Source of the DNA: Gemmatimonadota bacterium
GTDB taxonomy: Bacteria; Gemmatimonadota; Gemmatimonadetes; JACCXV01; JAHWKZ01
NCBI GenBank assembly: GCA_035711625.1
Contig: DASTCA010000054.1
Span: 7,993 to 71,992 of the forward strand
Length of the DNA stretch: 64,000 nucleotides
Reading direction: 5' to 3'
In this document: positions 3,690 through 46,774 of the stretch, piece after piece
How the letters are laid out: each line of letters starts with the position of its first letter
How positions within the stretch are numbered: position 1 is the first letter of the stretch
Translations under genes and position numbers: made by a program
Notes under the pieces: model-generated
Databases searched by the model: none
The model's input: only the letters and a program-made list of their open reading frames with translations
Told to the model about the DNA's origin: nothing

Positions 3690-5062
3690 GCCTCCCGGTG
3701 GTAGCGATCGTCGGACGGCCGAACGTGGGGAAGTCCACGCTATTCAATCGCGTGCTGGGCGCGCGAGACGCGATCGTCCATGACGAGCCCGGCGTGACCC
3801 GGGACCGGCACGCGGCGACCGCCGAATGGGCCGGCCGGCGCTTCACGCTCGTCGACACGGGCGGCCTGATCCCCGAATCTCAGGAAGAGATCGCGCGCCA
3901 GGTGAACGCGCAGATCTATGCCGCGATCGAGCAGGCCGACGTCTGCCTGTTCGTGGTCGACGGGCGCACGGGTCCCACACCGGTCGACCGCGAGCTGGCT
4001 CAGGTGCTCCGCTCGAGTGGCAGGCCGACCGTCCTGGCCGTGAACAAGGCGGACAACGCCCGCATCGGCCAGCGGATGACGTGGGAATTCTTCGAGCTCG
4101 GGCTCGGCGAGCCGCTCGCAGTCTCGGCGCTCTCCGGCATCCAGAGCGGCGACCTGCTGGACGCAGTGGTCGCCGCACTGCCCTCCGATGTGGCCGATCC
4201 TTCGGCCGATCCCGACGAGATCACGATCACGGTCATCGGAAAGCCCAATGTCGGGAAGTCCTCGTTCCTGAACCGTCTGCTGGGCGAGGAGCGATTCATC
4301 GTCTCGCCCGTCGCGGGAACGACCCGTGACGCGATCGACACCACGTTCACCTACCGCGACCGCAGGTTCCGCCTGGTCGACACCGCCGGGATCCGCCGCC
4401 ATGCCGCGCTCGAGGAGGGCCTCGAGTACTACACGTACCTGCGCGCGGTGCGGAGCCTGGATCGGGCGCAGATCGCGATCGTGATGCTCGACGCGTCCGA
4501 GCCCCTGTCGCGGCAGGACCTGAGGATCCTGAACCTCGTGGAAGAGAGGCGGCGCGGCATCGTGGTCTGCGTGAACAAGTGGGACCTGATAGAGAAGGAC
4601 GAGCGGACGGCTGCGGGGTACGAGGCCGCCTTCCGCGCGCAGGCGCGCACGCTCGCCTGGGCGCCGATGGTCACGATCAGCGCCGCGACCGGACAGCGCG
4701 TCACACGCGCGCTGGAGGTGGCCGAAGAGGTATGGAAGGAGTGGCACAAGAAGGTGCCGACCCCCGAGCTAAACAAGGTGCTGCACCGGGCGACTGCGAA
4801 CGTCCATCCGCCGCAGTCGAAAAGCCGGCGGGGAAGTCGGGTCGTGCGCGTCCTCTACGCGCACCAGGCCGAAACCGGCCCGCCGCTGTTCCTCTTCTAT
4901 GCGAACGAGCCGCAGGCGATCCCCGAGCATTACCGCCGCTATCTCGAGAACGAGATCCGCGATGCGTTCGGCTTCGCGGGCGTTCCACTGCGCCTGTTTT
5001 TCCGTTCTTCCACCGCCCGGTCGCGGCAGCGCGTCGACCCGGCGGGTCGGGAGACCGGGTGA
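3686..5062 (+). CDS. der: Ribosome biogenesis GTPase Der (EngA), two tandem GTPase domains
   Basis: Two GxxxxGKS P-loops (GRPNVGKST and GKPNVGKSS) with DTGG/DTAG motifs and a KH-like C-terminus. The listed ORF 2993..5062 has a spurious N-terminal extension; the internal ATG at 3686 overlaps the upstream stop. Confidence 0.9.
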   Translation: MSLPVVAIVGRPNVGKSTLFNRVLGARDAIVHDEPGVTRDRHAATAEWAGRRFTLVDTGGLIPESQEEIARQVNAQIYAAIEQADVCLFVVDGRTGPTPVDRELAQVLRSSGRPTVLAVNKADNARIGQRMTWEFFELGLGEPLAVSALSGIQSGDLLDAVVAALPSDVADPSADPDEITITVIGKPNVGKSSFLNRLLGEERFIVSPVAGTTRDAIDTTFTYRDRRFRLVDTAGIRRHAALEEGLEYYTYLRAVRSLDRAQIAIVMLDASEPLSRQDLRILNLVEERRRGIVVCVNKWDLIEKDERTAAGYEAAFRAQARTLAWAPMVTISAATGQRVTRALEVAEEVWKEWHKKVPTPELNKVLHRATANVHPPQSKSRRGSRVVRVLYAHQAETGPPLFLFYANEPQAIPEHYRRYLENEIRDAFGFAGVPLRLFFRSSTARSRQRVDPAGRETG

Positions 5063-6717: not shown

Positions 6718-7119
6718 ATGGGATTCAATCCGATCGCGAGGAAGGAGTACTACTCGATCGGCGAGGTGTGCCGGATCACGGGGCTCAAGCCCCACGTGCT
6801 GCGCTACTGGGAGACCCAGTTCAAGGGGCTGGTCCCCGTCAAGAACCGCGCGGGGAACCGCGCCTATCGACGCCGTGAGATCGAGATGATACAGCTCGTA
6901 AAAGAGCTGCTCTACGACAAGAAGTACACGATCGAGGGCGCCCGCCGGCGGCTCGAGGACCTGAAGCGGAGCGCGGGGTCGAAGCTCGAGTCCGAGCTGG
7001 AGGAGGCGAAGGTGAAGGACACCTTCGAGACGCTGGCCGAAGATCTGGGCGCGCTGGTGGGATACATCGACGCCTTTCGGCGCGGCGACGCCGAACCCGG
7101 AGCGCCGGGAGCCGCGTGA
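6718..7119 (+). CDS. MerR-family HTH transcriptional regulator
   Basis: N-terminal HTH (YSIGEVCRITGLKPHVLRYWE) followed by a coiled-coil. The stop overlaps the GTG of the downstream Trx-NHL gene. Confidence 0.75.
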   Translation: MGFNPIARKEYYSIGEVCRITGLKPHVLRYWETQFKGLVPVKNRAGNRAYRRREIEMIQLVKELLYDKKYTIEGARRRLEDLKRSAGSKLESELEEAKVKDTFETLAEDLGALVGYIDAFRRGDAEPGAPGAA

Positions 7120-8576
7120 CACCAGCGCCGCGGGTCCGTGCGCCCGTCTTCCCCGAGGACCTGGACTGGCTGCACGTGACCCGGCCCCCGACGTGGGACG
7201 ATCTGCGCGGCAAGGTCGTCGTGCTGGACTTCTGGACGTACGGTTGAATCAACTGCGTTCACATGCTCCCGCGGGTCCGGGAGCTGGAACGCGAGCTCGG
7301 CGACGCCGTCGTAGCGATCGGAGTCCATGCCGGGAAGTACCACCGCGAGCGGTTCACGGAGGCGATCGCCGACGCCTGCCGCCGCGAGGGTGTTTCCCAT
7401 CCGGTCGTGAACGACCGTCGCTTCCGATTCTGGCGCGAGAACGCAGTCGCGGCGTGGCCGACGATCTCGATCGTCGATCCGGAGGGGTATGTCGTCGGGC
7501 AGCAGTCCGGTGAGCTGCCGTACGGGCCGCTGCGCGACTTTGTCGCGAACCTGATCCAGGAGCACGAAGGGAAGGGGACGTTGGATCGACAACCCTGGTC
7601 GCTGCATGCCACGCCGGACGAAGGGGTCGGCGGTGCGCTCCGCTATCCCGGCAAGGTGGCCGCCGATATCGAGGGCAGGGTCGCGGTGTCGGACAGCGGG
7701 CACCATCGGGTCGTTTTCGGGCATGCGCTCGGGAACTCGCTCGAGGTGCAAGCCGTGGTCGGGAGCGGCGCGGCCGGATTCGCGGACGGATCGTTCGAGG
7801 AGGCCGAGTTCCGCGAGCCGCAGGGCCTGGCACTGGCGGGCGACATGCTGATCGTCGCGGATCGGGGGAACCACGCGATCCGGATGGTCGACCTCGCGTC
7901 CCGCACGGTGGCGACCATGGCCGGGACCGGCAACCTGGGGGAGGGTCGCTCGGGCCCGGGGGATCCGCTCGAGACCGCGCTCCGGTCGCCGTGGGACGTG
8001 CTCCTGCACGACGCCGGCTTGTTCATCGCGATGGCCGGCGCGCATCAGATCTGGCGGCTCGACCTGCGCGCCGGGCGGATCGGCCCCCATGCGGGCTCGG
8101 GGCGCGAGGACATCGCGGACGCCCCCGCACCCGCTGCCGCTCTCGCTCAGCCCATGGGGTTGGCGACCGACGGCGAGCGGCTCTACTTCGCCGACGCCGA
8201 GACGTCCAGCGTGCGGGTCACGTCGTTCGAACCGGGCGGCAGGGTCGAGACGCTGGTCGGGACCGGCTTGTTCGAGTTCGGCGATCGGGACGGGGAGGGG
8301 GACGAAGTCCGACTGCAGCATGCCGCCGGGCTGGCGTGGGGTCCGGGGAACCACCGGCTCTGGATCGCGGACACGTACAACCACAAGCTGAAGACGCTGG
8401 ACCCCGCGACGCGCCGGGTCGAGACCGTGGAGCCGTTCGAGGAAGAGCTATCCGAACCGATGGGGTTGGCCGCAGCCGGGCACTACATGCTCGTGGCCGA
8501 CACGAACCACCACCGGATCCTGCGGGTCGACCAAATCGACAAGCGGGTCGTTGAATTGCAAGTAGAAGGTCTGTGA
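7116..8576 (+). CDS. Thioredoxin-fold (TlpA/AhpC-TSA-like) + NHL-repeat beta-propeller protein (NHLRC2-like). Candidate selenoprotein with in-frame TGA at 7245..7247 in a U-x-x-C redox motif. The ORF-track version is 7263..8576.
   Basis: A GTG at 7116 overlaps the MerR stop and reads in frame ...LRGKVVVLDFWTYG-TGA-INCVHMLPRV... This places TGA exactly at the first Cys of a WCxxC-type thioredoxin active site. The protein continues in frame into ORF 7263 and the NHL repeats. Confidence 0.55.
7265..7284 (+). other. Stem-loop GCUCCCG-CGGGUC-CGGGAGC starting about 17 nt downstream of the in-frame UGA; candidate bacterial SECIS element
   Basis: Perfect 7-bp stem with a GGU-containing apical loop, placed where bacterial SECIS hairpins sit (apex about +25 to +30 from UGA). 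Confidence 0.35.
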
Positions 8577-8648: not shown

Positions 8649-8924
8649 ATGCTTCCCCCGAAGGACCCCCGCCAGAAGACCGGCTATCAGCTGCGACGCT
8701 CCGTCGTTCACGCTGTCCGCGATGCCGTCCGCAACGGAGCCGCCGAGAGCCAGAGTGCCTTCGTCGAGCGCGCGCTCGTCCGTGAACTGAGAGACCTCCG
8801 CAAAGCGAACTTCTCTGTGGCCTACGGCGAGGCGGCCCGAGACCCACTGTTCATGGAAGAGATGAAGGCCACCGATGCCGCGTGGGATGCCGTCACGGAC
8901 GACGGCCTCCATGCGAATGGCTGA
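8649..8924 (+). CDS. Type II antitoxin, ribbon-helix-helix (CopG/ParD-like)
   Basis: The 91-aa product has an RHH-like segment (SVVHAVRDAVRNGAAESQSAFVERALVREL). Its stop overlaps the MazF start. Confidence 0.6.
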   Translation: MLPPKDPRQKTGYQLRRSVVHAVRDAVRNGAAESQSAFVERALVRELRDLRKANFSVAYGEAARDPLFMEEMKATDAAWDAVTDDGLHANG

Positions 8925-9324
8925 GAGGCCCGATCGTGGGAGCATTCGCCGGTGGGATCTCTACGGGGTCGACTTGGAGCCCGTGGTAGGAAGCGAACAG
9001 GGCGGCGCACGTCGTCCCGGATTGATCATCTCGAGCGACGACTTCAACGAGCACTTCCCGATCGTAACCGTCATTCCCCTGACCGGAACGCACCGCAAAC
9101 GCCGCCGGGTCTACCACTTCGAGATGATCCTGGAGCGTGGAAGCGCGGGCAATTCCGAGGATTCGATTGCCATGCCGCAGCAGATCCGAACCGTCTCCAA
9201 GACCCGACTCCGCGGACGGATGGGCAGGCTGAGTGCTCGGCATCTCCAGGCAAAGATCGAGCATCGCGTACTCGAGCACCTCGGCATCGAATCCGAGTTT
9301 GCCGCACCGGAGAGTGGCGCCTAG
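8911..9324 (+). CDS. mazF: Type II toxin, MazF/PemK family endoribonuclease
   Basis: Motifs [35 protein letters not shown] and VIPLT match the MazF/PemK core. Start is ATG at 8911 or 8917; the listed ORF begins at 8875. Confidence 0.8.
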
Positions 9325-9335: not shown

Positions 9336-9412
9336 CGGGGCGTAGCGCAGCCCGGTAGCGCACCTGAATGGGGTTCAGGTGGTCGCAGGTTCAAATCCTG
9401 TCGCCCCGACCA
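9336..9412 (+). tRNA. tRNA-Pro (anticodon GGG)
   Basis: Manual cloverleaf: acceptor CGGGGCG/CGCCCCG, U8, D-stem GCGC/GCGC, anticodon stem CCUGA/UCAGG with loop AUGGGGU, T-loop UUCAAAU, discriminator A, encoded CCA. Confidence 0.9.
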
Positions 9413-10682: not shown

Positions 10683-11465
10683 ATGATCACGCACCTGCTC
10701 CTGATGGGATCCTTCCTCACTTCTCCCAGCGTGATCCACCAAGAAACGGTGAGCGACACGATCCGACTGGAGGTCGGATCTCGCGAGGTAGATGGCCGGG
10801 TGTTTCCGGTGCATCGCGCACGCAATCGAGTCTATCTGGGGGAATCCAGCGAGCCGGTCGTGACTTGGACGAACGAGCTGACCCTCGGGGACTCCGCCGG
10901 GGTTCCCGTAATGCGATGGGTGACCCGGGGGGAGCCGGGTCCGGCCGCAACGGGCGGGCATCGATGGGAGCTCCTGCAGACCTACAACGCGCGCACGCTG
11001 GCCCCTCTGGCCTACTCCAATACCTCGAGCACGGGTGCGTACATGCGCCTGACGATCGACGGCACGCGGGTACGCGGGGTCAAGCGCGGACCGGGCGGTG
11101 ATGCACAGGAGGAGCAGGTGGATCAGACGCTCGAGCGGCTGGGCTTCATGGCCAGTGCGTCGGACCTCGTGCCCATGGCCGTGGGGCTTCGGGCCGGGAG
11201 CGTCATCCGAGCGCCGGTCTGGGGTCCGAGCATGCAGGCCGCCGAAGACCGCATATTCGCTGTTCTGGACCAGGAGACCGTGTCCGTGGAAGGCGCGGAG
11301 GTCGTGGCCTGGAAGGTCGAGGAGCGGTTCGCCGACACGGGAAGGCTCTACGCCACTTGGTGGCTCACCGAGGCCTCACCCTATATGGTCCTGGCAGAAG
11401 TCATCCAGCCGGATGGGCAGGTGAGGCGGATCACCGGGGTGGCTCTGGAGGAGGATGTCGACTGA
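10683..11465 (+). CDS. Hypothetical secreted protein (signal-peptide-like N-terminus)
   Basis: A strong AAGGAGG SD sits 8 nt upstream of the ATG at 10683 (the first ATG at 10677 is too close). N-terminus is hydrophobic (MITHLLLMGSFLTSPS). The composition is protein-like. Confidence 0.5.
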   Translation: MITHLLLMGSFLTSPSVIHQETVSDTIRLEVGSREVDGRVFPVHRARNRVYLGESSEPVVTWTNELTLGDSAGVPVMRWVTRGEPGPAATGGHRWELLQTYNARTLAPLAYSNTSSTGAYMRLTIDGTRVRGVKRGPGGDAQEEQVDQTLERLGFMASASDLVPMAVGLRAGSVIRAPVWGPSMQAAEDRIFAVLDQETVSVEGAEVVAWKVEERFADTGRLYATWWLTEASPYMVLAEVIQPDGQVRRITGVALEEDVD

Positions 11466-11662
11466 TCTCCATTCGCGGAGGGTGAGATCGCCGTATAGGT
11501 CGAGCATCTGATCGAGATCAACGCTGACGACCGCGGCTTCATTGTCTTGAATTGTTAGTTTCCATACGATCGTGACTAGCATTGTGTTTTACTATCTCGC
11601 CAGAGAGACTTAATATTTGGCGAAGCGGGGCCAGCGCAAGCTAGTGCGCCTGGAGGCTCACG

Positions 11663-12235
11663 ATGTGGGGAGTTCCACGTATCAGCGTCATAGCCGCTAC
11701 GTGTCTCTCACTTGGCGGCTGCAGTGACGCAGGGCCAGTCGCGGATCCGCGATTGCTCGCCACGACAGGTAGTGACCAGCGGATAGCATCCCTTTGCTCA
11801 GCCGAGCGCTTCCCGACTAACCAAGTCAACTCTATCAGTTGCTGTCAGGACGGGGACCGTACTTGGCACACCAATAACGGCACGCGCTTGGTGTTCCGGA
11901 CTTATGACGGGAACGTGTGTACTGAAGCCGATGGAATCAGCACAAATTGCGGGGTGGGAACGTCACCTTTTGTTCCTTGCACCTATGGCCCATGTGGAGC
12001 CAAGAATGAGTGGGCGGTCGATGCGGAGGCAGTGTTCGTCTTCATGCCAACTTCCAAACCGGACAAGTGTGGTTGGGAGGCGAGAGGCGTGACGGGATGC
12101 GCCTTGGGATGCGATTGGCCCACGGGCGCCGTGCGTGGACATCCGGAACCGTTCGTCGATCAGGTCCAGTACGGGGGCACTGCGAACAGTTGCCCCTATA
12201 CGAGGTGTCTGAAGGGCGGCATTCCGAGTCTATGA
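11663..12235 (+). CDS. Cysteine-rich secreted lipoprotein (lipobox LSLGGC), hypothetical; lies in a lower-GC patch
   Basis: Signal peptide plus lipobox Cys, about 16 further Cys in 190 aa, Gly/Thr/Asn-rich. Local GC is clearly below the roughly 70% background, and AT-rich DNA lies upstream (11480-11660). Confidence 0.55.
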   Translation: MWGVPRISVIAATCLSLGGCSDAGPVADPRLLATTGSDQRIASLCSAERFPTNQVNSISCCQDGDRTWHTNNGTRLVFRTYDGNVCTEADGISTNCGVGTSPFVPCTYGPCGAKNEWAVDAEAVFVFMPTSKPDKCGWEARGVTGCALGCDWPTGAVRGHPEPFVDQVQYGGTANSCPYTRCLKGGIPSL

Positions 12236-13305: not shown

Positions 13306-13424
13306 AACTTCTGCCTAGTCTTGTTGAGTTTCTTTGTTTTCATGGACGCCGATGATCCTATCGAATAGGCTCCCGATGCTGCGTCGGTGAAGCGCGCCGG
13401 ATACCCGCTGGTAGAGGAATCCTG

Positions 13425-15623
13425 ATGAGACGGGTCCTGAGGCTGCACGTGATCGTGTTCGGACTGTGTGCACTGGCTCCGGCTGTCGGGGAGAGAGTCT
13501 CGGCCCAGGAAGCGCCGGCCGACCCGGCGATCGGGCTGGTCTTGAGTGGCGGCGGCGCGAAGGGGTTCGCCCATCTCGGCGTCCTCAAGGTGCTCGAGGA
13601 GTACCGCGTCCCTGTCCACTACATCGCAGGGACGAGCATGGGCTCGATCATGGGGGGACTCTACGCCTCCGGACTGTCGACGCAGGAGATCGAGGAAACG
13701 CTAGGGGAAGTCGACTGGGTGTCGCTCTTCGACGATCAACTCCCTCGCGAGGAGCTCGACTATAACCGGAAAGATGACGACTTCCGGTACCTGTTCGATC
13801 TCGGGGTCGGCTTTCGGGTTCGGGGCGGGATCGTGATCCCGACCGGTCTCCTGGCGGGCATCCAGGTCGAGGGTCTCTTGAGGGAAAACACGATCCACGT
13901 GACAGGGGTCGACGACTTCGACGATTTCCCGATTCCGTTCCGCGCTGTCGCCGCCGACATCGAGCACGGGGAGTCTTACGTCCTGGAGCGCGGCGACCTG
14001 GCGCGCTCGATTCGAGCCAGCATGTCGATTCCGGGTGCCTTTGCGCCGGTCGAGATCGATGGGCGCCTTCTCGTGGATGGAGGGATCACAGACAACATGC
14101 CGGTCGATCTCATCCGCTCGCTCGGCGCCGACGTCGTGATCGCGGTAGACGTGAGCGAGCCCCTCCGCTCGCGCGAGCAGCTCGAGAACGTATTCGGTGT
14201 TGTCGGGCAGCTGACCGGGATGCTGACGCGCCTCAATGTCGAGGCCCAGATCCCTCGGGCGGACATCCTGTTGGACCCCGAGCTGGGAGAGCTGAGTGGA
14301 GGGGACTTCACGAAGTTCGCCGAGCTCGTGGCCATCGGGGAGGCGGAGGCCAGAAGTCATGAGGCGGAACTCCGGCGCTACTCGGTTTCGGAGGCGGAGT
14401 ACGCGGCATATCGCGAGCGATACCGCTATCGCCCGGACCTTCAAGGACGGGTGGACTTCGTCGACGTGCAAGGAAACGAGCGGGTGGATCGTCGCATGAT
14501 CGATGCCCGAATCCGGCTCGAGCCGGGGGATCCGTTCGATCCCGCGGTGATCCGTGAAAACGTCACGCGCGTCTACGGCATGGGGGCTTTCCGGAGCGTG
14601 GCCTGGGACGTCGAGCGGCGGGGCGAGGAGCTGGGCGTCGTGATCCGGGTGGTCGAGAAACCCGAGGGCCCGAATTACGCGAAGTTCGGGATGGTCCTGG
14701 ACGATGCTGGGACCTTCGACGGCCGCATGAATCTGACGCTGACCCAGCTCAACCGGCGCGGGGCAGAACTGCGGAACGATTTTCAGTTCGGAGCTATCGT
14801 CGGATTCTCTACGGAATTCTACCAGCCGCTCGACTATGCTGGGACGTTCTTCGTCGCGCCTTCGATCGCGGTGCGGAACGAGGACCAGGACGTCTTCGAT
14901 GACGACGGAGACAAGGTCGCGGTCTACGAGGTCGACCGAAGGGTCGGCCGGTTCGACGTGGGATACAATATCGGCCGGCACGGAGAGCTCCGGCTGGGTG
15001 TCCTGCGAGGCAAGATCGACGCGCACGTGGGCGTCGGAGCGGCGGACCTTTCCGACTTCGACGCGACGGCGGCAGGATTCCGAGTCGCGCTCAACCTCGA
15101 CCGGCTCGACGACTCGAGCTTCCCCGAGCGCGGCTACCTGACATGGGTGTCGTATTTCATGTCGCGGGAGGGGATGGGCGCGGATGACGGGTACGACAAG
15201 CTCACGCTGAATTCGGCCGTTTTCTGGACGCGCAATCGCTGGACCTGGACGACCGCTCTCCTCATGGGCTCGGCTCTGGGCAGCGACATTCCCGCGTACG
15301 ATCAGCATACGCTGGGAGGTTACCTGTCTCTGGCGGGCCTGCAGGACGACCAGCTTCGGGGTCAGTACGCGGGTCGGGCGCGACTGGGAGGGTACTACCG
15401 CCTGGCAACGCTGCCGCGGTTCGTCGGCGAAGGCCTCTTTCTGGGCGCCTTCCTCGAGACCGGGCAGGCGTGGGATCGGTCGGACGAGATCTTCGAGGAC
15501 CTAATCTGGAGCCTCTCGGGATTCCTCGGCATCGACACGTTCCTGGGTCCCTTCACGATGGCCTACGGCGTCGCGAGCAGTGGTCAGGACGAGTTCTACG
15601 TCTCGCTCGGAAGGAACTTCTGA
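13425..15623 (+). CDS. Patatin-like phospholipase fused to POTRA/Omp85-type beta-barrel (Type Vd autotransporter, PlpD-like)
   Basis: Signal peptide, GLVLSGGGAKG oxyanion motif, GTSMG nucleophile elbow and a D-G-G catalytic Asp region. A C-terminal region of about 400 aa is beta-rich and ends in an aromatic residue (RNF). Confidence 0.8.
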   Translation: MRRVLRLHVIVFGLCALAPAVGERVSAQEAPADPAIGLVLSGGGAKGFAHLGVLKVLEEYRVPVHYIAGTSMGSIMGGLYASGLSTQEIEETLGEVDWVSLFDDQLPREELDYNRKDDDFRYLFDLGVGFRVRGGIVIPTGLLAGIQVEGLLRENTIHVTGVDDFDDFPIPFRAVAADIEHGESYVLERGDLARSIRASMSIPGAFAPVEIDGRLLVDGGITDNMPVDLIRSLGADVVIAVDVSEPLRSREQLENVFGVVGQLTGMLTRLNVEAQIPRADILLDPELGELSGGDFTKFAELVAIGEAEARSHEAELRRYSVSEAEYAAYRERYRYRPDLQGRVDFVDVQGNERVDRRMIDARIRLEPGDPFDPAVIRENVTRVYGMGAFRSVAWDVERRGEELGVVIRVVEKPEGPNYAKFGMVLDDAGTFDGRMNLTLTQLNRRGAELRNDFQFGAIVGFSTEFYQPLDYAGTFFVAPSIAVRNEDQDVFDDDGDKVAVYEVDRRVGRFDVGYNIGRHGELRLGVLRGKIDAHVGVGAADLSDFDATAAGFRVALNLDRLDDSSFPERGYLTWVSYFMSREGMGADDGYDKLTLNSAVFWTRNRWTWTTALLMGSALGSDIPAYDQHTLGGYLSLAGLQDDQLRGQYAGRARLGGYYRLATLPRFVGEGLFLGAFLETGQAWDRSDEIFEDLIWSLSGFLGIDTFLGPFTMAYGVASSGQDEFYVSLGRNF

Positions 15624-18663: not shown

Positions 18664-20790
18664 CTAGGGAAGCGACTCCGGCGACGACGCGGGAATGCCG
18701 TTCAGCGCGTCGACGACAGCGAGCACGTTCCCCCGGTCGTAGAAGTTCACGGCCACGAAGTTGGGGATCCTGCCTCGCTCCATCTGGCATTCGAGGGCGC
18801 GGCGCAGGAGAACGTCGTACGCGTTCACCGAATCCGCATCGGCGGGCGACGGGGTCACCTTGTGGATCCAATGGTTGAGGATGAAGAGGGGGCTGTCCGG
18901 TCGGCCGCGGCTTTCCGCGCAGTTGAAGTCGGCGGGGGTCCGGAAGGCATAAGGGGTCTCCTGCATCAGCTCCCAGCCCGAGTGGAGCCAGGGCGGCCCG
19001 GTGGCTCCGCTCTCCGTCATCACGAGGAGGGGCCGGTTCGCGTCGATCATCTCGGCCAGCGTGGGCCAGGGTTCGGAGGGTCGCTTGACGAAGGCGAGCT
19101 CGTCGAGCGCGGCCTCGCGAAAGGCCTCGACCGTGTCCTCAGGCCGCGTTCCGTCCTCGAGGATGATCACCACGACTTCGTCGTGGTTGGACTCGAGGAA
19201 CTCTCGAACGTCCGTCAGGGCGTCCGCGAGCCGGGTGGCCCCGACCTCACACATGACGTGGCACATGAAGACCTCCGGTCGAGCGCCTTCCTCGACGGGC
19301 CCGAGCCTCGCGGCCAGCCGGTCCGCGGCCTCGGTGAACTCGACTCCGAATTCTTCGATCAGGGTCTGGCGGCTGCGCTCGTGGAGCGGTGACGTCCGTA
19401 CTCCCCGGGAGACCGCGAATCCGTAGTAGGTGTCGATCATGAATCCGCGCATGCCGAACTCCAGCTGGCGACGGAGCCCGCCGTCCTGCGAGGCGAAGAA
19501 CCACCCAGGCTCGGCGGCCGCCGCCATCGCGTTGTGGCCGGTCGCCAGAACGACGTCGGTGAGAGGGCGGTCGCAGAGCTCGGCGTGGCCGTTGCAGCGG
19601 CGGATGCCGCCGGGGTCTCCGGGAGCGGTCGCGGAGCGCGAAGAAACGTAGAGCCACCCGGCGCCGACCAGCCCCAGAACGAGAATCGCCGCTGTGAGCG
19701 CGTGCCTGAGCGCGCGCAGACCCGCCGCGCGTCCGGACGACTGCGCCCCACGCGGGACCTCCCCTTCGATCCCGATCCCGCTCGCGCGAATCAGCTCGTT
19801 CAGCCCCACGTAGAGCGCGTAGAGACCGGCCGCGATGCCGAGCCCCCCCATCAGGGTCGACGGCCAACGGATCATCGCCACGGCCGCCAGGACGATACCC
19901 AATGCCCGGGCCAGCCGGCCGAGACGGCTCTCGGGGACCGTCGTCAGCGCGCGGCGGACGCGATCGGCGTCCGCTCGAATATCGACCGGGCGAAAAGCCG
20001 ATGCGGCGGCCGCGGCCAGCGCGATCCCGAGCACCGCGGTGCCGAGCCCCCAGATCGCCAGGTCGCCCGCGAAGGGACGCCAGATCCCCAGCAAGGCCCG
20101 CTCCGCGAGCGGCTCCAGGTCCGACGACATCAGGATCGCGCGCCCGATGCCGACCGTTGCGGTGACGGCCGCGCCTGCCGCAGCGGCGGAGACTCCCACC
20201 CGCGATACGGCCCGATCCCGGTCCGATGCCAGCCACACACCGGCGCCGAACGCGAGAAAGGCGAGGAGAGGAAGCAGCCACCCGAGAAACCGAACCCTGG
20301 TTCCGGTCGCGATGGCTTGCGCGGCGAAGTCCCGCTTTCGCAGCTGGATCAGGGTCGCTCTTACGTCGGGAAGCCGCTCGGCGAGTTGCGGATCGATGGC
20401 GCGGACGGCGCCGTCCACGATGATCATGAGATCGAGAAGCTCGAGGACGATCGCCTGGTCCGGCGCGAAGAGAGACGCGTGGGCCTGGCGTACCGCGTTG
20501 CCGTAAATGGCGCGGAACGGCCGACTCTCGACGACCTGGCCGACCGCCAGCTCGAGGACCGGTCGGACAGCGACGAGCTGCGCGGAGCCGCGGGCGACGA
20601 TCTCATCGACGACGTTCTCGGTGACGACCGTTCGGACCGCGTCGTTCTCGAGGACCTCGATGGCGCGGGACGAGAAGCCGTGGGGATCGTAGATCGCGAC
20701 CCTGCCCCAGAACGCGATCAGACCGGCGAACAGGAGGATTCCGCCCACCGCGATCAGGCCGGACGACACGACCGGACGAGAGCGAGTCAT
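18664..20790 (-). CDS. Membrane-anchored protein with C-terminal PI-PLC X-domain-like phosphodiesterase domain
   Basis: Multiple N-terminal TM segments. The C-terminal region (CDRPLTDVVLATGHNAM ... FMIDTYYG ... ILEDG) resembles PLC-like phosphodiesterase TIM barrels. Antisense ORFs on the plus strand are judged spurious. Confidence 0.6.
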   Translation of the reverse strand: MTRSRPVVSSGLIAVGGILLFAGLIAFWGRVAIYDPHGFSSRAIEVLENDAVRTVVTENVVDEIVARGSAQLVAVRPVLELAVGQVVESRPFRAIYGNAVRQAHASLFAPDQAIVLELLDLMIIVDGAVRAIDPQLAERLPDVRATLIQLRKRDFAAQAIATGTRVRFLGWLLPLLAFLAFGAGVWLASDRDRAVSRVGVSAAAAGAAVTATVGIGRAILMSSDLEPLAERALLGIWRPFAGDLAIWGLGTAVLGIALAAAAASAFRPVDIRADADRVRRALTTVPESRLGRLARALGIVLAAVAMIRWPSTLMGGLGIAAGLYALYVGLNELIRASGIGIEGEVPRGAQSSGRAAGLRALRHALTAAILVLGLVGAGWLYVSSRSATAPGDPGGIRRCNGHAELCDRPLTDVVLATGHNAMAAAAEPGWFFASQDGGLRRQLEFGMRGFMIDTYYGFAVSRGVRTSPLHERSRQTLIEEFGVEFTEAADRLAARLGPVEEGARPEVFMCHVMCEVGATRLADALTDVREFLESNHDEVVVIILEDGTRPEDTVEAFREAALDELAFVKRPSEPWPTLAEMIDANRPLLVMTESGATGPPWLHSGWELMQETPYAFRTPADFNCAESRGRPDSPLFILNHWIHKVTPSPADADSVNAYDVLLRRALECQMERGRIPNFVAVNFYDRGNVLAVVDALNGIPASSPESLP

Positions 20791-20913
20791 CAGCTCGATC
20801 TCCTGAAGGATGCGAAGTCGAATGCCCTGGGTTTCATCGGACCTCCCAGCGCTGGTATGTTCTCGGCACCAGGATCCGGTACGTAATCATAGGACCAGCG
20901 GAGGGGCGAGTCG

Positions 20914-25916: not shown

Positions 25917-25951
25917 AGGCTACCCATTGTCCGCAACACCGCCAAGAGAGG

Positions 25952-28900
25952 TTGAAATGTGGCCACGGTCGGGACAAGATTGAATGTAGAATGTCCGAAA
26001 CGATGGTTTCCGCAGTTTCCACCCACCGTCTTGCCGCCGTTTGGTTCGCTGACATCGTCGGGTTCACCAGGTTGTCCGCACGCGATGAGCGCACGGCGAT
26101 GACACTCATTTCCATCCTTCAGCTCTGTGCGCGGCGGGCGGTGGGAGGACATTCCGGTCGACTGGTCAAATTCATGGGCGATGGAGCGATGGCAGAGTTC
26201 GGAAGCACGGACGCCTCCATCCGCGCCGCCCTGGCGCTCAAAGCCGACTTCGAGGAGCTGTCAAGAAAGCGGGGTGCTCCAGCTCTGCTCAGGATCGGCG
26301 TGCACGTGGGCGATGTGGTGAGCGCCGAGAACGACATCTATGGGGATGGGGTGAACACCGCGAGCAGGATCCAGCGCGAGGCGCGGCCGGGGGAAGTTCT
26401 TGTGAGCGATGACGTCTGGCGCCATCTGAAGGGGCGCGACGAGTTCACAATGGAGGATCGAGGGGAGCGGGAGCTGCGCGGGTTGGATGGGATGCATCGC
26501 TTGTACGCGGTGCAGATGGTCGAGCAGAAGAAGCGAGAGACACGGGACGACTCCAACCTCCCTGATTCCTGGGCCATCGCGGTCCTTCCATTCGTCGACA
26601 TCAGCCCCGGGCAGGACAACGAGTACTTCAGCGACGGCATGACAGAGGAGCTCATCCACTCCCTTTCTCGAGTCGACGGTCTGCGGGTCGCCTCGCGAAC
26701 GTCATCGTACTCGTTCAAGGGACGCTCCGCCGGGATCGACGAGATCGCCGAGGCACTGCGAGTGAACGTCGTTCTGGAAGGAAGCGTGCGAAAAGTCGGC
26801 AGCCGCGTCCGCGTCACGCCATTGCTGGTGGATGCCGCGAATGGCTTTCAGCTCTGGACGGACACCTACGAGCGGGAGCTCGAGGACGTCTTCGATCTGC
26901 AAGAGACGATCTCGAGCGCCATCGTCGATGCCCTTCAGGTGAAGCTCGGAGCGCCCGATCGAATCACGCGGGAGCATACGAGTGTTTCCGCGGCGTACGA
27001 TGAGTATCTGAAGGGACGGTACCACTGGAATCGACATACTCCGGAGGATTTCAAGACGAGCATCGAGCATTACGAGAGAGCGATCGCCGCCGATCCGGAC
27101 TACGCGCTGGCCTGGGCCGGCCTCGCCGACTCCTACATCACGATGGGCGCCGTCTTCCTGGGCCGGCCCAAGGATCTCTACCCGCGGGCGCGTGAGGCCG
27201 CCCGGAAGGCGTTGGAACTCGATCCTCGCCTCGCGGCCGCACAGGCGGCCCTGGCGGAGGTACAGCTGCGCTACGACTGGGACTGGGACGCGGCCGAGCG
27301 CGGGTTCAAGCGCGCACTGGCCCTGGATCCCAACTACCCGGACGCGCGTTACCGGTACGGGAACTTCCTTCGTGACATGGGGCGGTTCGACGAGGCGATC
27401 GTCGAGGTGCGCCGCGCCCAAGGGATGGATCCGTACTCCCGCCCCATTTCGGCGGCCGTGGCGGGGGTCTTCTATTACGCAAAACGGTACGACGAGGCGA
27501 TCGAGGAATGCCTTCGAACTCTCGAACAGGACAGCTTCTACAATGTGAACTACTACCTGGCGGTTTCTTACATCGAAAAGGGAATGCCCGACAAAGCCGT
27601 GCGTCAGTTCGAGCGGGTTCGGGAGCTGGCGGGGTTCCGGGGATCGATCGCCGGATTGATCCTGGGATACGCGGCGGCCGGAAGGACGGACGAGGCGTGG
27701 GTTCTTCTGGAGGATCTGCGCTCGATGGCGGAAAAGGGAGAGGCTTCGGCCTTCCTCGTCGCGACGGCCTGCCTGGCCCTGGGCGACCGGGACGAGGCAT
27801 TCCGCTGGTTCGACATCGCGGTAGAAGAGCGAACGAGCTGGTTCACGAGCCTTCGCGTCGAACCGCGTTTCGCTCACCTCCACGAGGATCCCCGCTTCCA
27901 GCGCCTTCTCGCCCGGGTCGGGTTCCCGATGCCGACCAACCGCATCCCTCACAATCTCCCGACCCAACCGACCCCCATCGTTGGACGCGAGCCCGAGTTG
28001 AAAGCTGTCCGTGGGTTGCTGCTCGATCCCGCTGCTCGGATCGTCACGCTTGTCGGACCCGGTGGCGTGGGAAAGACCCGGCTGGCGATCGAAGCGGCTT
28101 CCCACACGCTGGAGGGGTTCCCCGACGGCGTCCGGTTCATCCCCCTCTCCGCGGTCGATCTGCCCGACATCCTACCGCCCGCACTGGCGCGGGCGATCGG
28201 CATCGTGGAAATGGACCCAACTCCTTACGACGCGCTCGTGGCCGGTCTGCGGGGCCGCCGACTCTTGCTCATTCTCGACGGCTTCGAGCATCTCCTTCCG
28301 GGGGCACCCCTCGTCGCGGAGCTGCTGGGCGCGCTTCCGGAGTTGCGCGTGATGATCACTAGCCAGGCCACCCTGCGGGTGAGAGGCGAGCGAGTGTTCC
28401 AGGTGCAGCCGTTGGCGCTGCCGGCTCCTGGCGCGCGCGAACGGAGCGTCGGCGCGCTGAGCAAGTACGGGGCCGTGGCTCTGTTTCTCGAGCGGATGGA
28501 GGCGGTGAAGCCCGCGTACTCGCCGGGGCCGGAGGATATGGATGCCGCGGTTGAGATCTGTCGCGAGCTGGACGGCCTACCACTCGCGATCGAGCTCGCG
28601 GCGGCGCGCCTCCGAATGATGTCGCCGCCGGCTCTGCTCGGTCGACTGAGGGACCGCTTCGACTTTCTCGTCCAGGGCCCGCGCGACCTGCCGGAGCGGC
28701 ACCAGACCCTGCGAGCGGTGTGCGATTGGAGCTATGGCCTTCTCGATCCACGGGAGCAGGCCATGTTCCGCCTCCTGGCACCGTTCGTAGGTGGATGCAG
28801 TCTGGAAGCGGCCGACTGGATGGTAAGGGACGGAAGGGACGACCCGAATGCGTATGGGGCGTCGGAGCGACGAGGCGTCATCGACCTGCTCGCCTCGCTG

Positions 28901-30196
28901 GTCGAGAAGAGCCTGGTGCGGCAAGAGGAAACGGGCGAGGGCGAGCCTCGCTTCCAGATGTTGGAGACGATTCGCCAGTACGGGCTCGGCCTCCTCGATT
29001 CACTTGGAGAGGGCACGGCCGCGCGTCGTCTGCAACTCGACTATTTCCTGGAGCTCGCGATGCGAGCTGAGCCATTCCTGACCGGGCCCGATCAGGCGGA
29101 GTGGCTAGACCGGCTGGATCGGGATCACGAGAATGTCGCCGCCATCATGGACTGGGCGCTCGAAGTCGGGGAGGTCGAGAGCGCGGTTCGGTTGGGCAGC
29201 GCGATGTGGTGGTTCTTCTGGTTGCGCGGGCACTTCGAGGAGATGCGCACTCGGTTGGAGCTGGCTCTCCAGCGAGCTGCGGACCTGCCACCCTCGTTGC
29301 AGGCCAATCTTCACGTCGCGAGCGGGGCGATCGCGACCATGGACGGGGAAGGGGAGCTGGCTGCGCGGCATTACGAGCAGGCGCTCGAGCTGGAGCGCGG
29401 TCGTAAGGACGGACGCGGAGTTCCGCGCGCACTACGGAGCTTGGCATCCAGCCTGGTGAATCTAGGGCGCTCCGAGGAAGCGCTTCCGCTCTACGAGGAA
29501 GCGCTCGCCATGGACCGGGGGTTCGGAAATTCCCTCGGGGAGTGTGCGGCGTTGCGGGGATTGGCCAAGGCAGCGCTGCACATAGGAGAGCTCGATCGGG
29601 CGGGCGAGCTGTATTCCCAGGCGCTCGCGTTAGCGCGCTCGATCGGCGATCGACATTACGTCGCCTACGGGCTGGCGGGACTGGGAGAAGTGGCTCGGCA
29701 GCGAGGTCGACTGGATGAGGCGGAAGCGCTGTATCAGGAGGGACTGGACCTGTGTCGACGGATCGGTAGCCAGCCCGGCATCGCGAGCGCGCTTCAGCAC
29801 CTGGCCACGATCGCTCTCGCCTCGGGGAAGCCCGATCGATCGGAGGAACTGTATCGAGAGGCGCTGGAGATCGATCGCCGGTTGAACAACAAGCGGGGCA
29901 TCGCATTCTCGCTGGCGGGGCTGGGGGCGACGGCTGTAATGCGGCAGGACAGGGAGCGGGGGGTTCGCATCCTGGGTGCGGCGGAACGTCTGATAGGATC
30001 TTCCGGAGCCGTATTGCCGCCCCATGAGCAGCAGTGGTGGCAGGATCGCTTCACCACGGCCGTCCAGGCCCTGGGGACCACAAGAAGCGGAGATTTGCTT
30101 GCGGAGGGGCGATCGCTTTCGCTGGAAGCGGGGATCGAGCTCGCGCTCGAACGCGCCACGGCGGTGCCGGGGAATCCACCCGGGCGAGCCGCCTAG
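25952..30196 (+). CDS. Multidomain signalling protein: class III adenylate/guanylate cyclase + TolB_N-like domain + TPR + STAND (NB-ARC) P-loop NTPase + TPR; no HTH output domain
   Basis: Cyclase domain motifs ([21 protein letters not shown]). A TolB_N-like block ([33 protein letters not shown]...VLEGSVRK). TPR repeats. A Walker A ([13 protein letters not shown]) with an NB-ARC region, then more TPR repeats. Start may be a later ATG (about 25991). Confidence 0.8.
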   Translation: [1414 protein letters not shown]

Positions 30197-32452: not shown

Positions 32453-32531
32453 GACCGGAAGGTGGGTGTCCACCCGCGGCCGGGCAAGCGCGATCGTTCC
32501 GCCGGCGGCCGGGCGCGCATAGCTTGGGCGC

Positions 32532-33914
32532 ATGGATCTGGTCGTCCGGAGCTCCAGGGTCGTTCTCCCGGAAGGCATCGTGCCGGCCGCGGTCTTCGTT
32601 TCGGGCGGAAGGATTGCGAAAGTCGTCCGGGCGAAGGCCCCCGTCCTCGCCACCCTGGAGATCGACGCCGGCGACTCGGTCGTGATGGCCGGCCTCGTGG
32701 ATCCGCACGTCCACGTGAACGACCCCGGGCGAGCGGACTGGGAAGGGTTCGAGACGGCAGGCCGGGCTGCCGCGGCGGGAGGAACGACGACGATCGTCGA
32801 CATGCCGCTGAACTCGCTTCCGGTCACGACGACGGTCGACGCGCTCGAGGCCAAGGTCCGCGCCGCGACCGGGAGCTGCCGCGTGGACTTCGGGCTCTGG
32901 GGCGGGATCGTCCCCGGGAACGGCGGTGATCGCAGGGCTCTGATCGACGAGGGGGCGCTGGGGCTCAAGGCATTCCTGGTCCCGTCGGGGATCGAGGAGT
33001 TTCCGGAGGTCGACGACCTCGAGCTGGGCCGCGCGATGTCGGAGCTGGCTCCGACGGGAGCGCCCGTGCTCGTTCATGCCGAGGACGCCGACGAGCTCGA
33101 ACGCGCCGCGGAGCGCGCCGCGCGTTCGAGGCCCGGATCCTACGCGGAATGGCTGGCGTCGCGGCCACCTGAGGCCGAAGCGCGTGCGGTCGCCCGCGTC
33201 GCCACCCTCTGCAGGCAGACCGGCGCCCGCGCGCATGTCGTTCATGTCGCCGCGGCCGAAGCGGTGGACGAAGTCGCAGCCGCGAAGGCGGGGGGAATCC
33301 CCGTGTCCGCCGAGACCTGCCCTCACTACCTGTCGTTCATCGCCGAAGAGGTGCCCGAGGGAGACCCGCGCTTCAAGTGCGCGCCGCCGATCCGCGAAGC
33401 CCGACATCGTGACGCCCTCTGGCGAGGCCTCGGCTCGGGCGCCCTCGACCTCGTCGCCTCGGACCACTCGCCCTGTCCGCCCGCCCTCAAGCCGCCCGGT
33501 GAGCTGGCCGGCGCGTGGGGCGGGATCGCCGGCCTCGAGCTCCGGCTTCCCGTCACCTGGACGGAGGGCCGGATCCGCGGCGTGTCGCTCCGGGAGCTGG
33601 CGCGCTGGCTGGCCGAAGCCCCGGCGCGACTCGCCGGCCTCTCCTCTCGGAAGGGTCGCATCGCGGTCGGTCAGGACGCCGATTTCGTGATCTGGGACCC
33701 CGAGCGCGAGTTCGTGGTCGACGCCGCCAAGCTCCACCAGCGACACACCGCGACGCCATGGGAGGGACGCGCGCTCCGCGGGGTCGTCGAGACCACGATC
33801 CTCCGCGGGCGCATCGTCTACGAGCGGGATCGCTTTCCCGGAACCCCCGATGGTCGCTGGCTGCGACGGACCGCCGGGATGGTCGCGCCCCTCGCGGAGG
33901 CAGGATCGAGGTGA
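32532..33914 (+). CDS. allB: Allantoinase (cyclic amidohydrolase)
   Basis: DPHVHVNDPGR metal-binding start with the amidohydrolase fold. It has allantoinase-like length and lies next to allantoicase. Confidence 0.8.
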   Translation: MDLVVRSSRVVLPEGIVPAAVFVSGGRIAKVVRAKAPVLATLEIDAGDSVVMAGLVDPHVHVNDPGRADWEGFETAGRAAAAGGTTTIVDMPLNSLPVTTTVDALEAKVRAATGSCRVDFGLWGGIVPGNGGDRRALIDEGALGLKAFLVPSGIEEFPEVDDLELGRAMSELAPTGAPVLVHAEDADELERAAERAARSRPGSYAEWLASRPPEAEARAVARVATLCRQTGARAHVVHVAAAEAVDEVAAAKAGGIPVSAETCPHYLSFIAEEVPEGDPRFKCAPPIREARHRDALWRGLGSGALDLVASDHSPCPPALKPPGELAGAWGGIAGLELRLPVTWTEGRIRGVSLRELARWLAEAPARLAGLSSRKGRIAVGQDADFVIWDPEREFVVDAAKLHQRHTATPWEGRALRGVVETTILRGRIVYERDRFPGTPDGRWLRRTAGMVAPLAEAGSR

Positions 33915-33922
33915 GCGGCTTC

Positions 33923-34906
33923 ATGCAGCTTCCGGATCTCGCGTCCGCGCGTCTCGGCGGTCGGGCCGTCGCCGCGAATGACGAGTTCTTCGCCCCCAAG
34001 GAGAACCTGGTCCTGGACGCGGCACCGATCTTCGATCCCGCCCGGTACACCGATCGAGGAAAGTGGATGGACGGCTGGGAGACGCGCCGCCGCCGCGAGC
34101 CGGGCCAGGACTGGTGCGTCGTGCGCCTGGGAGTACCGTGCGTCGTGCGCGGCGTGGTCGTCGACACCACCCACTTCCGCGGGAATCATCCCCGGAGCGC
34201 GTTCATCGACGCCTGCCGCCTGGCCACCGAGCCGGAGAGGTGGGAGGACGTGGAATGGAGCCCGCTGGTTCCGGAATCGACGCTCACGGGCGACGCGGAA
34301 AACCCGTTCGCGGTGACGGACGGCGGATCCTGGACCCACGTCCGGCTCTCGATCGTTCCCGATGGCGGCGTGGCCCGTCTCCGGGTTCATGGCGAGGCCG
34401 CTCCGGACTGGGCGCGCGTTTCGCGGACCGAACCGACGGGCGACGTCGAGGTCGCGTCGATTCCCCGCGGCGGCGTTGTGATCGCATGCAGTGACGAGTT
34501 CTTCGGGGCGCCGAATCACCTTCTCCTTCCCGACGCGTCGGAAGGCATGTGGGACGGGTGGGAGACCCGCCGTCGCCGCGACTCGGGTCACGACTGGGTC
34601 GTCGTCCGGCTCGGGCACCGCGTCCGGGTGGAACGTGTCGAGGTCGACACCCGGCACTTCAAGGGAAACTACCCGGGAAGCGCGAGCGTTGAGGCGATCG
34701 ACGCGACGGATGCTGGCCCGACCGAGCTGTTCGCGGAGAGCGCGGCATGGCGGGAAGTCGTTCCGCGACGACCTCTCCGGCCCGACGTGGCGCATGTCCT
34801 GGAGCCGCCCGAGCTGTCCCCGGCGGACGCGACCCACGTGCGGCTCTCGATCTTCCCCGACGGTGGGGTCGCGCGACTCCGCGTTCGGGGAACCCTGCTC
34901 GATTGA
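33923..34906 (+). CDS. alc: Allantoicase (two allantoicase repeats)
   Basis: Duplicated motif blocks (FFAPKENL...WMDGWETRRRR... and FFGAPNHLL...MWDGWETRRRRD...). An alternative GTG start at 33911 overlaps the allB stop. Confidence 0.8.
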   Translation: MQLPDLASARLGGRAVAANDEFFAPKENLVLDAAPIFDPARYTDRGKWMDGWETRRRREPGQDWCVVRLGVPCVVRGVVVDTTHFRGNHPRSAFIDACRLATEPERWEDVEWSPLVPESTLTGDAENPFAVTDGGSWTHVRLSIVPDGGVARLRVHGEAAPDWARVSRTEPTGDVEVASIPRGGVVIACSDEFFGAPNHLLLPDASEGMWDGWETRRRRDSGHDWVVVRLGHRVRVERVEVDTRHFKGNYPGSASVEAIDATDAGPTELFAESAAWREVVPRRPLRPDVAHVLEPPELSPADATHVRLSIFPDGGVARLRVRGTLLD

Positions 34907-35424: not shown

Positions 35425-35753
35425 GCATCACGACCCACGTCCTCGACCTGACCCGCGGCCAGCCGGCGGCGGGCATGGGCGTCCTCTTGTCCGTGCGGTC
35501 GGGCGACGGGTGGCGCGAGCTGGCGCGCGGGACGACCGACGCCGACGGCCGTGCGAGCCTCCCGCTCGAAGATCCCCTGCGCACCTCGACGTACCGCCTG
35601 CGATTCGAGACCGGGGACTGGTTCCGGGGTGCGGGGGTGGACGGATTCTGGCCGCACGTCGAGATCGCGTTCGACGTGACCGAGCCCACGCGGCACCACC
35701 ACGTGCCGCTTCTCCTCTCGCCCTACGGCTACTCCACCTATCGGGGGAGCTGA
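35421..35753 (+). CDS. uraH: 5-hydroxyisourate hydrolase (transthyretin-like)
   Basis: 110 aa with an HVLD N-terminus and the C-terminal signature YRGS. The ATG overlaps the uraD stop. Confidence 0.85.
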   Translation: MSITTHVLDLTRGQPAAGMGVLLSVRSGDGWRELARGTTDADGRASLPLEDPLRTSTYRLRFETGDWFRGAGVDGFWPHVEIAFDVTEPTRHHHVPLLLSPYGYSTYRGS

Positions 35754-35759
35754 GGAGCG

Positions 35760-36941: not shown

Positions 36942-37021
36942 ACGCGAGGCGAAGCGGATGCGCCTGAGCTAGGCGATCGTCGACAGCCTGGCGTTCTCGG
37001 TGGGGAGAACCGGCCCGGGAC

Positions 37022-41853: not shown

Positions 41854-41872
41854 GCCGGACGAGCGGGTTCGC

Positions 41873-46708: not shown

Positions 46709-46774
46709 CGAGGAAAGACTGTCCCAGAGGGTCCCGTCGGTGCAAGGACGCCCTGCGCCATTTACCTTGTCCAG

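Follow-up and report, generated by a model that had tools for sequence, protein, structure and literature searches.

A conserved in-frame TGA in a bacterial thioredoxin-NHL gene very probably encodes selenocysteine

Results

An in-frame TGA at the active site of a thioredoxin-NHL gene

A 64,000-nucleotide stretch of DNA from a Gemmatimonadota bacterium (contig DASTCA010000054.1; hereafter the window, meaning the whole stretch) carries a gene for a thioredoxin-like (Trx) domain joined to an NHL-repeat propeller, in which a TGA codon stands exactly where the catalytic cysteine is expected. Based on sequence comparison across relatives, we conclude that this TGA is very probably a genuine selenocysteine (Sec) codon. 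Read from GTG 7116-7118, which overlaps the stop codon of an upstream MerR-family gene (TGA 7117-7119; shared GTGA), the frame contains a single in-frame TGA at 7245-7247, and the next stop is the end of the gene at TGA 8574-8576. The frame reads ...GKVVVLDFWTYG-[TGA 7245-7247]-INCVHMLP..., with FWTYG-U-INC as the motif context (G-U-I-N-C-V-H) and VVVLDFWTYG-TGA-ATC-AAC-TGC-GTT-CAC around the site. An initial annotation, made from the letters of this stretch, had proposed the overlapping GTG start and the uninterrupted frame, and we found all of their elements in place.

7116..8576 (+): complete read-through gene, Trx-like plus NHL, with the predicted Sec at residue 44; 486 codons plus stop, by translation
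7245..7247 (+): TGA, very probably read as selenocysteine (U44) at the N-terminal, nucleophilic position of U-I-N-C; counterpart in SOQ1: second Cys of FWTYCCINC; TGA in 27 loci, TGC/TGT in 132
7254..7256 (+): TGC, Cys47, resolving Cys of U-x-x-C; Cys is invariant in all 156 motif-bearing loci

The list of open reading frames (ORFs) divides this frame into a 43-amino-acid ORF (7116-7247) and a 437-amino-acid ORF that begins, as the initial annotation had said, at a Met six codons past the TGA (ATG 7263). The gene is split in the public record, an NCBI third-party annotation of the MAG, as well, where the 437-amino-acid ORF is HET9333174.1, an 'alkyl hydroperoxide reductase' without its active site, and the MerR protein is HET9333172.1; the accession between the two is presumably the 43-amino-acid N-terminal fragment. 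Elsewhere in the window, TGA is an ordinary stop codon that ends 18 of the 23 Pfam-supported ORFs (this gene included), so that the recoding would be specific to this site and an alternative genetic code in which UGA is a sense codon was rejected. A scan based on third-position G+C content (GC3) for TGA codons with a coding-type signal on either side returned three sites in the window, namely this codon, a gene junction at 53286 and an antisense artefact at 56137, and hence no other gene with an in-frame TGA.

The read-through product belongs to the NHLRC2/SOQ1-type Trx-NHL family

For domain and structure searches we used the product with Cys in place of the TGA. Pfam matches were obtained to NHL (1.2e-19), Thioredoxin_8 (1.8e-11, residues 32-126), Redoxin (5.5e-06, residues 27-135) and AhpC-TSA, and the Protein Data Bank (PDB) gave matches over residues 8-438 to SOQ1 (7djj, 3e-101) and NHLRC2 (6gc1, 1.7e-87). 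The Trx domain matched the single-domain structures of DipZ (2hyx, 3.1e-17) and ResA (about 2e-06), while no NCBIfam model reached its cut-off for this protein, the ResA/TlpA models staying below theirs. In the structure-database alignment, the TGA falls opposite the second Cys of FWTYCCINCMH in SOQ1, which is the first Cys of the C-I-N-C pair. Enzymes with a thioredoxin fold use the first Cys of CxxC, exposed at the N-terminal end of helix alpha-1, as their nucleophile. Homology thus bears out both the NHLRC2-like Trx-NHL identity and the placement of the TGA at the first Cys of CxxC that the initial annotation had put forward.

7194..7520 (+): thioredoxin-like (TlpA/ResA/DipZ-type) domain, residues 27-135, containing the TGA; Pfam Redoxin and Thioredoxin_8; DipZ 2hyx
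7458..7460 (+): codon of the cis-Pro in the W-P-T motif (residues 114-116); the alignment pairs awpt with SWPT of SOQ1
7638..8573 (+): NHL-repeat beta-propeller region, residues 175-486; Pfam NHL; SOQ1 NHL construct 7djm, 1.3e-58 over residues 174-438

The Trx-like active site of the family, x-C-[IV]-N-C followed by His, and its conserved cis-Pro are present here as G-U-I-N-C-V-H and W-P-T, the cis-Pro having the role described for Pro-163 of NHLRC2 (PMC6107167). A PF13905/cd02966 or PF08534 domain together with a UxxC motif was likewise found (Thioredoxin_8 and Redoxin; U-I-N-C). The C-terminal domain of beta strands with a Cys pair that occurs in human NHLRC2 and SOQ1 is absent, the protein stopping 442 residues past the Sec, and for this reason we file it as an orthologue of just the Trx-NHL core. 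No N-terminal hydrophobic segment is visible in the translated sequence. With the TGA lying inside the Trx domain, the 437-amino-acid ORF alone would be without the first beta-strand and the catalytic residue. As part of the selenocysteine reading, the gene in all likelihood encodes a cytoplasmic two-domain thiol/selenol oxidoreductase composed of a TlpA/DipZ-like Trx domain and an NHL propeller.

The TGA and both flanking frames are conserved across phyla

Two scans, the first over species-representative genomes and the second over metagenome contigs, together yielded 160 homologous loci, 156 of which bear the motif. The codon is TGA in 24 of these 156 (window included) and TGC or TGT in the other 132, so that every homologue without TGA has Cys here. 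Three further Gemmatimonadota relatives obtained by protein look-up (L161, L162 and L163) also carry TGA and bring the Sec loci to 27. The TGA-bearing taxa are Gemmatimonadota (window, L001), Anaerolineae (L002), Chloroflexia (L003, L017, L022, L025), Dehalococcoidia and other Chloroflexota (L012, L028, L033 and L036, the last carried on the Dehalococcoidia chromosome OY761558.1) and Rokubacteria/Methylomirabilota (L049, L057, L062, L068), the rest being metagenome contigs. The TGA is therefore spread over at least three phyla and three classes of Chloroflexota, in loci assembled independently in different studies. One of the refuting conditions that the initial annotation had named turned out in favour of its reading: no close relative is pseudogenised or has TGC/TGT at the site. 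In the alignment to homologues that it had also proposed, the codon is TGA (27 loci) or a Cys codon (132).

The upstream ORF is intact, with a start codon, in all 24 Sec loci of the scans. The closest database proteins (64-96% identity, about 437-441 amino acids) cover only 90% of the query, and 37 of the best 39 start right after the TGA position, at M(H)MLPRVR or MQPTVR; the remaining two start later, within the NHL part. In the Gemmatimonadota clade, the nonsynonymous rate (dN) over the 36 codons before the TGA is 0.03-0.25, compared to a synonymous rate (dS) of 0.4-1.9, which gives a dN/dS of about 0.06-0.2 (0.091/1.45 between the window and L001), and the constraint on these codons is at least that on the next 110. 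Judged from these rates, the 36 upstream codons are under purifying selection.

These findings bear on two simpler explanations. The first is that the TGA arose by a pseudogenising TGC/TGT-to-TGA mutation or by a sequencing or assembly error, which would suit a source that is a metagenome-assembled genome (MAG) and a public annotation that takes the TGA as a stop and calls a 437-amino-acid protein. However, neither a pseudogene nor an assembly error can yield a TGA that recurs in 27 loci, assembled independently in different studies and belonging to different phyla, when the ORFs before and after it are intact and the upstream dN/dS is 0.06-0.2; moreover, the TGA is accompanied by a co-conserved hairpin that is not seen in Cys forms (2 of 132 pass the model described below). 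We regard this explanation as effectively refuted. The second is that the TGA is a true stop, in which case the product would be the 437-amino-acid protein from ATG 7263 (NHL plus a crippled Trx domain) and the 43 codons would encode a separate or leader peptide. In its favour, an ATG (Met) at position +6 is found throughout the Gemmatimonadota clade, mRNAs of bacterial selenoproteins normally show some termination at the Sec-UGA, and one locus (L021) keeps the gpsA-merR synteny with an NHL-only ORF of 316 amino acids, so the propeller can be retained alone. On the other hand, the 43 upstream codons match the first strand and active-site loop of the Cys homologues residue for residue and show the same constraint as the half of the Trx domain that lies downstream, and the stop falls exactly on the catalytic Cys in every clade. 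A true stop would also leave unexplained the hairpin covariation and frozen synonymous sites reported in the next section, and we consider it highly improbable.

A SECIS-type hairpin is co-conserved with the TGA

The 7-bp perfect hairpin that the initial annotation had marked at 7265-7284 as a candidate selenocysteine insertion sequence (SECIS) is present, and it proved to be exactly the core that is conserved among relatives. Its stem is formed by 7265-7271 (GCTCCCG) and 7278-7284 (CGGGAGC), and its loop (7272-7277, CGGGTC) starts 24 nt after the UGA.

7265..7284 (+): conserved core of the candidate SECIS, 7-bp stem with 6-nt loop CGGGUC; -12.2 kcal/mol for the 20-nt core; within all four constraints on bacterial SECIS elements
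7254..7293 (+): extended hairpin with lower stem 7254-7260/7287-7293; minimum free energy (MFE) fold -29.7 kcal/mol, z = -2.25

The published constraints on bacterial SECIS (bSECIS) elements are a 3-9 nt apical loop, an upper stem of 4-16 bp, a G within the first two positions of the loop, a UGA-to-loop distance of 16-37 nt and an MFE <= -7.5 kcal/mol (PMC13188914). The core is identical in L081, L161, L162 and L163, differs by one loop change in L001 and has a 6-bp stem in L082. The lower stem of the extended hairpin is not kept in L161-L163 and is probably not essential for that reason. A perfect stem of 4 bp or more occupies this place in 22 of the 24 Sec loci (the stems of L017 and L022 are bulged), with the loop versions AGUU, CGGGUC/CGGGUA, CGUGC, AGUUC, CGGAGCU and GGGC. 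The loop starts 22-26 nt downstream of the UGA, and the hairpin is co-conserved with the UGA and both flanking frames across phyla.

The Cys forms serve as a control for this element. When only perfect stems were counted, the bSECIS model was satisfied, through a hairpin 24-26 nt downstream, by 20 of 27 Sec loci versus 2 of 132 Cys loci (Fisher p = 1.5e-17), which strengthens the proposal of the initial annotation that the hairpin is a bacterial SECIS candidate. The mean MFE over the 60 nt from the codon was -17.1 kcal/mol in Sec forms versus -9.3 kcal/mol in Cys forms (p = 2.5e-10), at a G+C content of 0.57 versus 0.49. Given shifts in the register of the hairpin, base pairs were counted against one specified structure, and the sequences were each scanned on their own. 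In the gapless codon alignment, 72.7% of the cells of helix 21-28/33-40 were paired in Sec forms compared to 33.3% in Cys forms, and compensatory CG<->UA exchanges were found at pairs 24:37 (9 versus 8) and 22:39 (17 versus 3). Of the seven hairpin codons, five (L, P, R, R, E) are the same in seven sequences from the Gemmatimonadota clade although dS elsewhere is about 0.8, and invariant third bases make up 5/7 in hairpin codons versus 18/67 elsewhere (p = 0.027).

The hairpin appears to dictate residues of helix alpha-1

The hairpin lies in the codons of helix alpha-1, which read L-P-R-V-R-E-L here versus I-P-D-L-K-K-L in Cys forms. At position +9 after the Sec/Cys, Asp is found in 117 of 132 Cys forms but in no Sec form, the Sec forms having Gln (12), Arg (5), Ala (3), Glu (3) or Val (1) instead; in the window, this codon is 7272-7274 (Arg53). 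We attribute the loss of Asp in the Sec forms to the location of the codon in the SECIS apical loop, where a G is needed. A change from Leu/Glu to Phe/Lys at codons +7 and +12 is likewise coupled by pairing, with CUC...GAG versus UUU...AAA (the latter in the Dehalococcoidia group). As read from these alignments, the family would be a clear example of a SECIS element that overrides protein conservation and dictates the residues of helix alpha-1. The residue preceding the Sec/Cys is Gly or Cys in both classes, which makes the first Cys of 'CC' dispensable.

Sec forms occur in several clades and share a short architecture

In a neighbour-joining tree of 156 proteins, Sec forms made up five all-Sec clades with Cys forms between them, the clades being 42-53% identical to one another. 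Although crude, this tree suggests several switches between Cys and Sec, or transfers. All 23 complete Sec forms belong to a short class with 396-461 residues after the Sec, whereas 104 of 126 complete Cys forms have about 140 extra C-terminal residues (Fisher p = 6.6e-15, a value that overstates independence, the sequences being related and retrieved with a short-form query). Sec thus seems confined to the two-domain architecture.

Evidence against selenocysteine and the source of the decoding machinery

Several observations weigh against selenocysteine at this site. With respect to the hairpin, 7 of 27 Sec loci fail the strict perfect-stem model, their stems being shorter, bulged or shifted in register. 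When the codons under the hairpin were recoded synonymously with the codon usage of the window, 13.7% of the recodings passed the model and 4.4% were equally strong and model-fitting. Taken alone, the window hairpin is only modestly beyond chance, and the strong statistics come from the comparison with other loci. RNAalifold returned no single consensus structure for the gapless alignment of all 24 Sec loci, since the register differs between clades (the hairpins of Chloroflexia and of the L057 type are shifted by 1-3 nt). With respect to the decoding machinery, selA, selB and selD are absent from the 64-kb window by a Pfam scan of about 40 ORFs, none of the three genes occurs in the flanks of the 23 other Sec loci, and a tRNA-Sec is absent from the window and from those 23 loci. 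The sel search covered the window and the locus flanks, and we infer the Sec competence of the organism.

We also considered whether the hairpin is a mere by-product of the GC-rich LPRVREL codons. This is partly true for the window, as the recodings that pass the model indicate, but base-pair covariation, synonymous sites that are frozen and the comparison with Cys forms led us to reject it as a full explanation. An Rfam search of 7150-7400 at E <= 10 gave no match, a result that is uninformative, bacterial SECIS elements being family-specific. Our literature search for Sec machinery in Gemmatimonadota/Gemmatimonadetes found nothing usable.

The lack of Sec machinery in the window and in the flanks of the Sec loci would fit a recoding of the UGA without Sec, either by hairpin-stimulated near-cognate read-through (inserting Trp, Cys, Arg or Gly) or by a lineage-specific suppressor tRNA, and downstream hairpins can indeed stimulate stop read-through. 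However, the position is that of the redox nucleophile, where only Cys or Sec is functional and where all non-TGA homologues have Cys, and the geometry of the hairpin, with a G within the first two positions of its loop and a spacing inside 16-37 nt, is that of a SelB-type bSECIS. The recurrence of the arrangement in unrelated phyla favours shared, portable machinery, and this genome uses TGA as its main stop codon. We consider recoding without Sec very unlikely, and selenocysteine remains the reading that we prefer.

Genomic context

6718..7119 (+): MerR-family regulator gene, its stop overlapping the GTG start; Pfam MerR_1 3.9e-19; conserved upstream neighbour in the Gemmatimonadota clade

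The relatives L161, L162 and L163 (68-96% identity) have the gene order AI-2E transporter, der, plsY, gpsA and merR followed by the split gene, and a 42-44-amino-acid ORF ending at the TGA is called in two of the three. The gpsA-merR synteny is kept without the Trx domain or the Sec site in L021 (Gemmatimonadota MAG M8-44_Bin_140, JBDHED010000019.1:2599-3960), where MerR ends at 2997, the NHL-only ORF of 316 amino acids starts at 3010 and a 1-Cys peroxiredoxin-like ORF lies at 4011-4670. This locus may represent what becomes of the gene when a lineage has lost Sec decoding.

Downstream of the Trx-NHL gene, a toxin-antitoxin pair at 8649-9324 (a 91-amino-acid ORF without Pfam match, then a PemK/MazF toxin, 2.8e-23) separates it from a tRNA-Pro(GGG) at 9336-9412. 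In L001 (4455-4592), the tRNA-Pro directly follows the gene, and the 96%-identical L163 has the toxin-antitoxin pair (11387-12062), so the pair looks like a recent insertion beside the tRNA.

A purine-catabolism cluster at 32523-52183 comprises an allantoinase-like amidohydrolase, allantoicase, a PuuD-type urate oxidase (Urate_ox_N 1.3e-120), DUF6986, XdhC and two sets of xanthine-dehydrogenase-type molybdenum hydroxylase subunits on opposite strands, and a MobA-like transferase lies at 60290-61120. A labile selenium cofactor in molybdenum hydroxylases would also need SelD. The window further contains paralogous fusions of a patatin-like phospholipase and an Omp85 barrel at 13356-15623 (+) and 41873-44137 (-), the first also with POTRA; a 740-amino-acid ORF at 18664-20886 (-) with a coding-type GC3 signal of 0.85 and no Pfam match at E <= 0.001; and, at 25919-30196 (+), a 1,425-amino-acid protein made up of an adenylate/guanylate cyclase, an AAA_16 ATPase and long TPR arrays. 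Near its Trx-NHL locus, L161 has a cyclase-TPR gene of a similar kind.

Discussion

A proposed route from UGA decoding to redox catalysis

On the basis of the known Sec pathway of bacteria, of thioredoxin-fold chemistry and of the related structures, we propose the following mechanism. SelD makes selenophosphate, which SelA uses to convert Ser-tRNASec to Sec-tRNASec. With the UGA at 7245-7247 in the A site, SelB-GTP carrying Sec-tRNASec would bind the G-containing apical loop of the 7265-7284 hairpin and outcompete RF2, and Sec would be inserted. U44 would then attack an oxidized substrate in the cleft that separates the Trx domain from the propeller; in NHLRC2, the CCINC motif faces this cleft toward the propeller (PMC6107167). 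A selenenylsulfide between U44 and Cys47 would form and be re-reduced. The lumenal domains of SOQ1 were reported to reduce methionine sulfoxide in a lipocalin, and its Trx domain to be redox-active and to pass electrons to the C-terminal domain (preprint 10.1101/2024.11.01.621559). In view of this reported activity, a protein disulfide or methionine sulfoxide would be the most likely candidate substrate. Since the Sec forms have no C-terminal domain, they would act directly or on a partner in trans.

Implications

Tentatively, we propose as a joint claim that Sec-containing Trx-NHL proteins may be a widespread, unrecognized soil and subsurface family (Gemmatimonadota, Chloroflexota, Methylomirabilota) in which the residue equivalent to the second Cys of CCINC is the nucleophile and no C-terminal relay operates. 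If this is true, the Sec-bearing Trx domain would act directly on a propeller-bound substrate rather than relay to a C-terminal Cys pair, as was proposed for SOQ1. NHLRC2 is essential, and it is mutated in FINCA disease. The Trx domain of NHLRC2 showed no insulin-reductase activity, and its crystallographers doubted a thiol-disulfide role (PMC6107167). Since Sec replaces only catalytic redox Cys, the natural Sec/Cys pair would support redox catalysis at the second Cys of CCINC, and the bacterial two-domain enzymes could serve as simple models for NHLRC2/SOQ1 biochemistry.

For selenium biology, the family would bring soil lineages of high abundance (Gemmatimonadota, Chloroflexia, Dehalococcoidia and Rokubacteria/Methylomirabilota) among the users of Sec; neither Gemmatimonadota nor Chloroflexi is mentioned in two selenoprotein reviews and one comparative-genomics paper (PMC13188914, PMC9312934, PMC5029168). 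For annotation, gene callers will keep dividing this family until a Sec-aware model exists.

Comparison with known systems

Among predicted bacterial selenoproteins, UxxC proteins of the thioredoxin fold form the most frequent class. The initial annotation had called a Trx-NHL selenoprotein unusual, which holds for the fusion, unnamed in the selenoprotein catalogues consulted, and does not hold for its UxxC chemistry, which is of the commonest bacterial kind. The catalogued UxxC families include a 'thiol-disulfide isomerase-like protein' (PF13905/cd02966), a 'redoxin family protein' (PF08534) and a 'Prx-like thiol:disulfide oxidoreductase' (PF00578) (tables in PMC9312934 and PMC13188914), with MGB1650493.1, MAK15852.1, HEU0032618.1 and MBA3499694.1 among the example proteins given for the first two. 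By Pfam assignment, these two generic entries would take in our Trx domain, and the protein has in common with the catalogued families the Pfam domains, the UxxC motif, the Sec/Cys pair and a bSECIS just downstream. NHL is not mentioned in the catalogue papers PMC13188914, PMC9312934 and PMC5029168, and our full-text literature searches found no bacterial selenoprotein paired with NHL or NHLRC2. The one fusion on record for 'Prx-like 3' carries an 'Unknown_3' domain with a CxxC (PMC2398784), which does not agree with an NHL propeller. The Sec form of the NHLRC2/SOQ1-type Trx-NHL family is thus probably undescribed, unless it stands under one of the generic catalogue labels.

The decoding mechanism is canonical. 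As in the E. coli fdh/bSECISearch paradigm, the hairpin lies within the coding sequence 3' of the UGA and has a small loop whose first two positions hold a G, followed by G or U. Unlike the E. coli fdh elements, to which it is unrelated in sequence, it occurs in at least three loop/stem versions (CGGGUC, AGUU and CGUGC/AGUUC) among the clades of a single family.

The closest single-domain structural relatives of the Trx domain are the C-terminal domain of DipZ/DsbD, TlpA and ResA, and the DipZ motif SCINC is related to this active site (PMC6107167). Those proteins use Cys and are either exported or anchored in the membrane, whereas the protein described here has a fused propeller and no N-terminal hydrophobic segment. 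Over residues 8-438, it has in common with human NHLRC2 (6gc1) and the lumenal domains of Arabidopsis SOQ1 (7djj) a Trx-like plus NHL core with FWTY-x-C-I-N-C-x-H and the W-P-T cis-proline. It differs from both in the predicted Sec that replaces the second Cys of CCINC, in the Gly rather than Cys that precedes it, in having no C-terminal beta-stranded domain, HAD domain or membrane anchor, and in the location of its gene in a bacterial der-plsY-gpsA-merR block.

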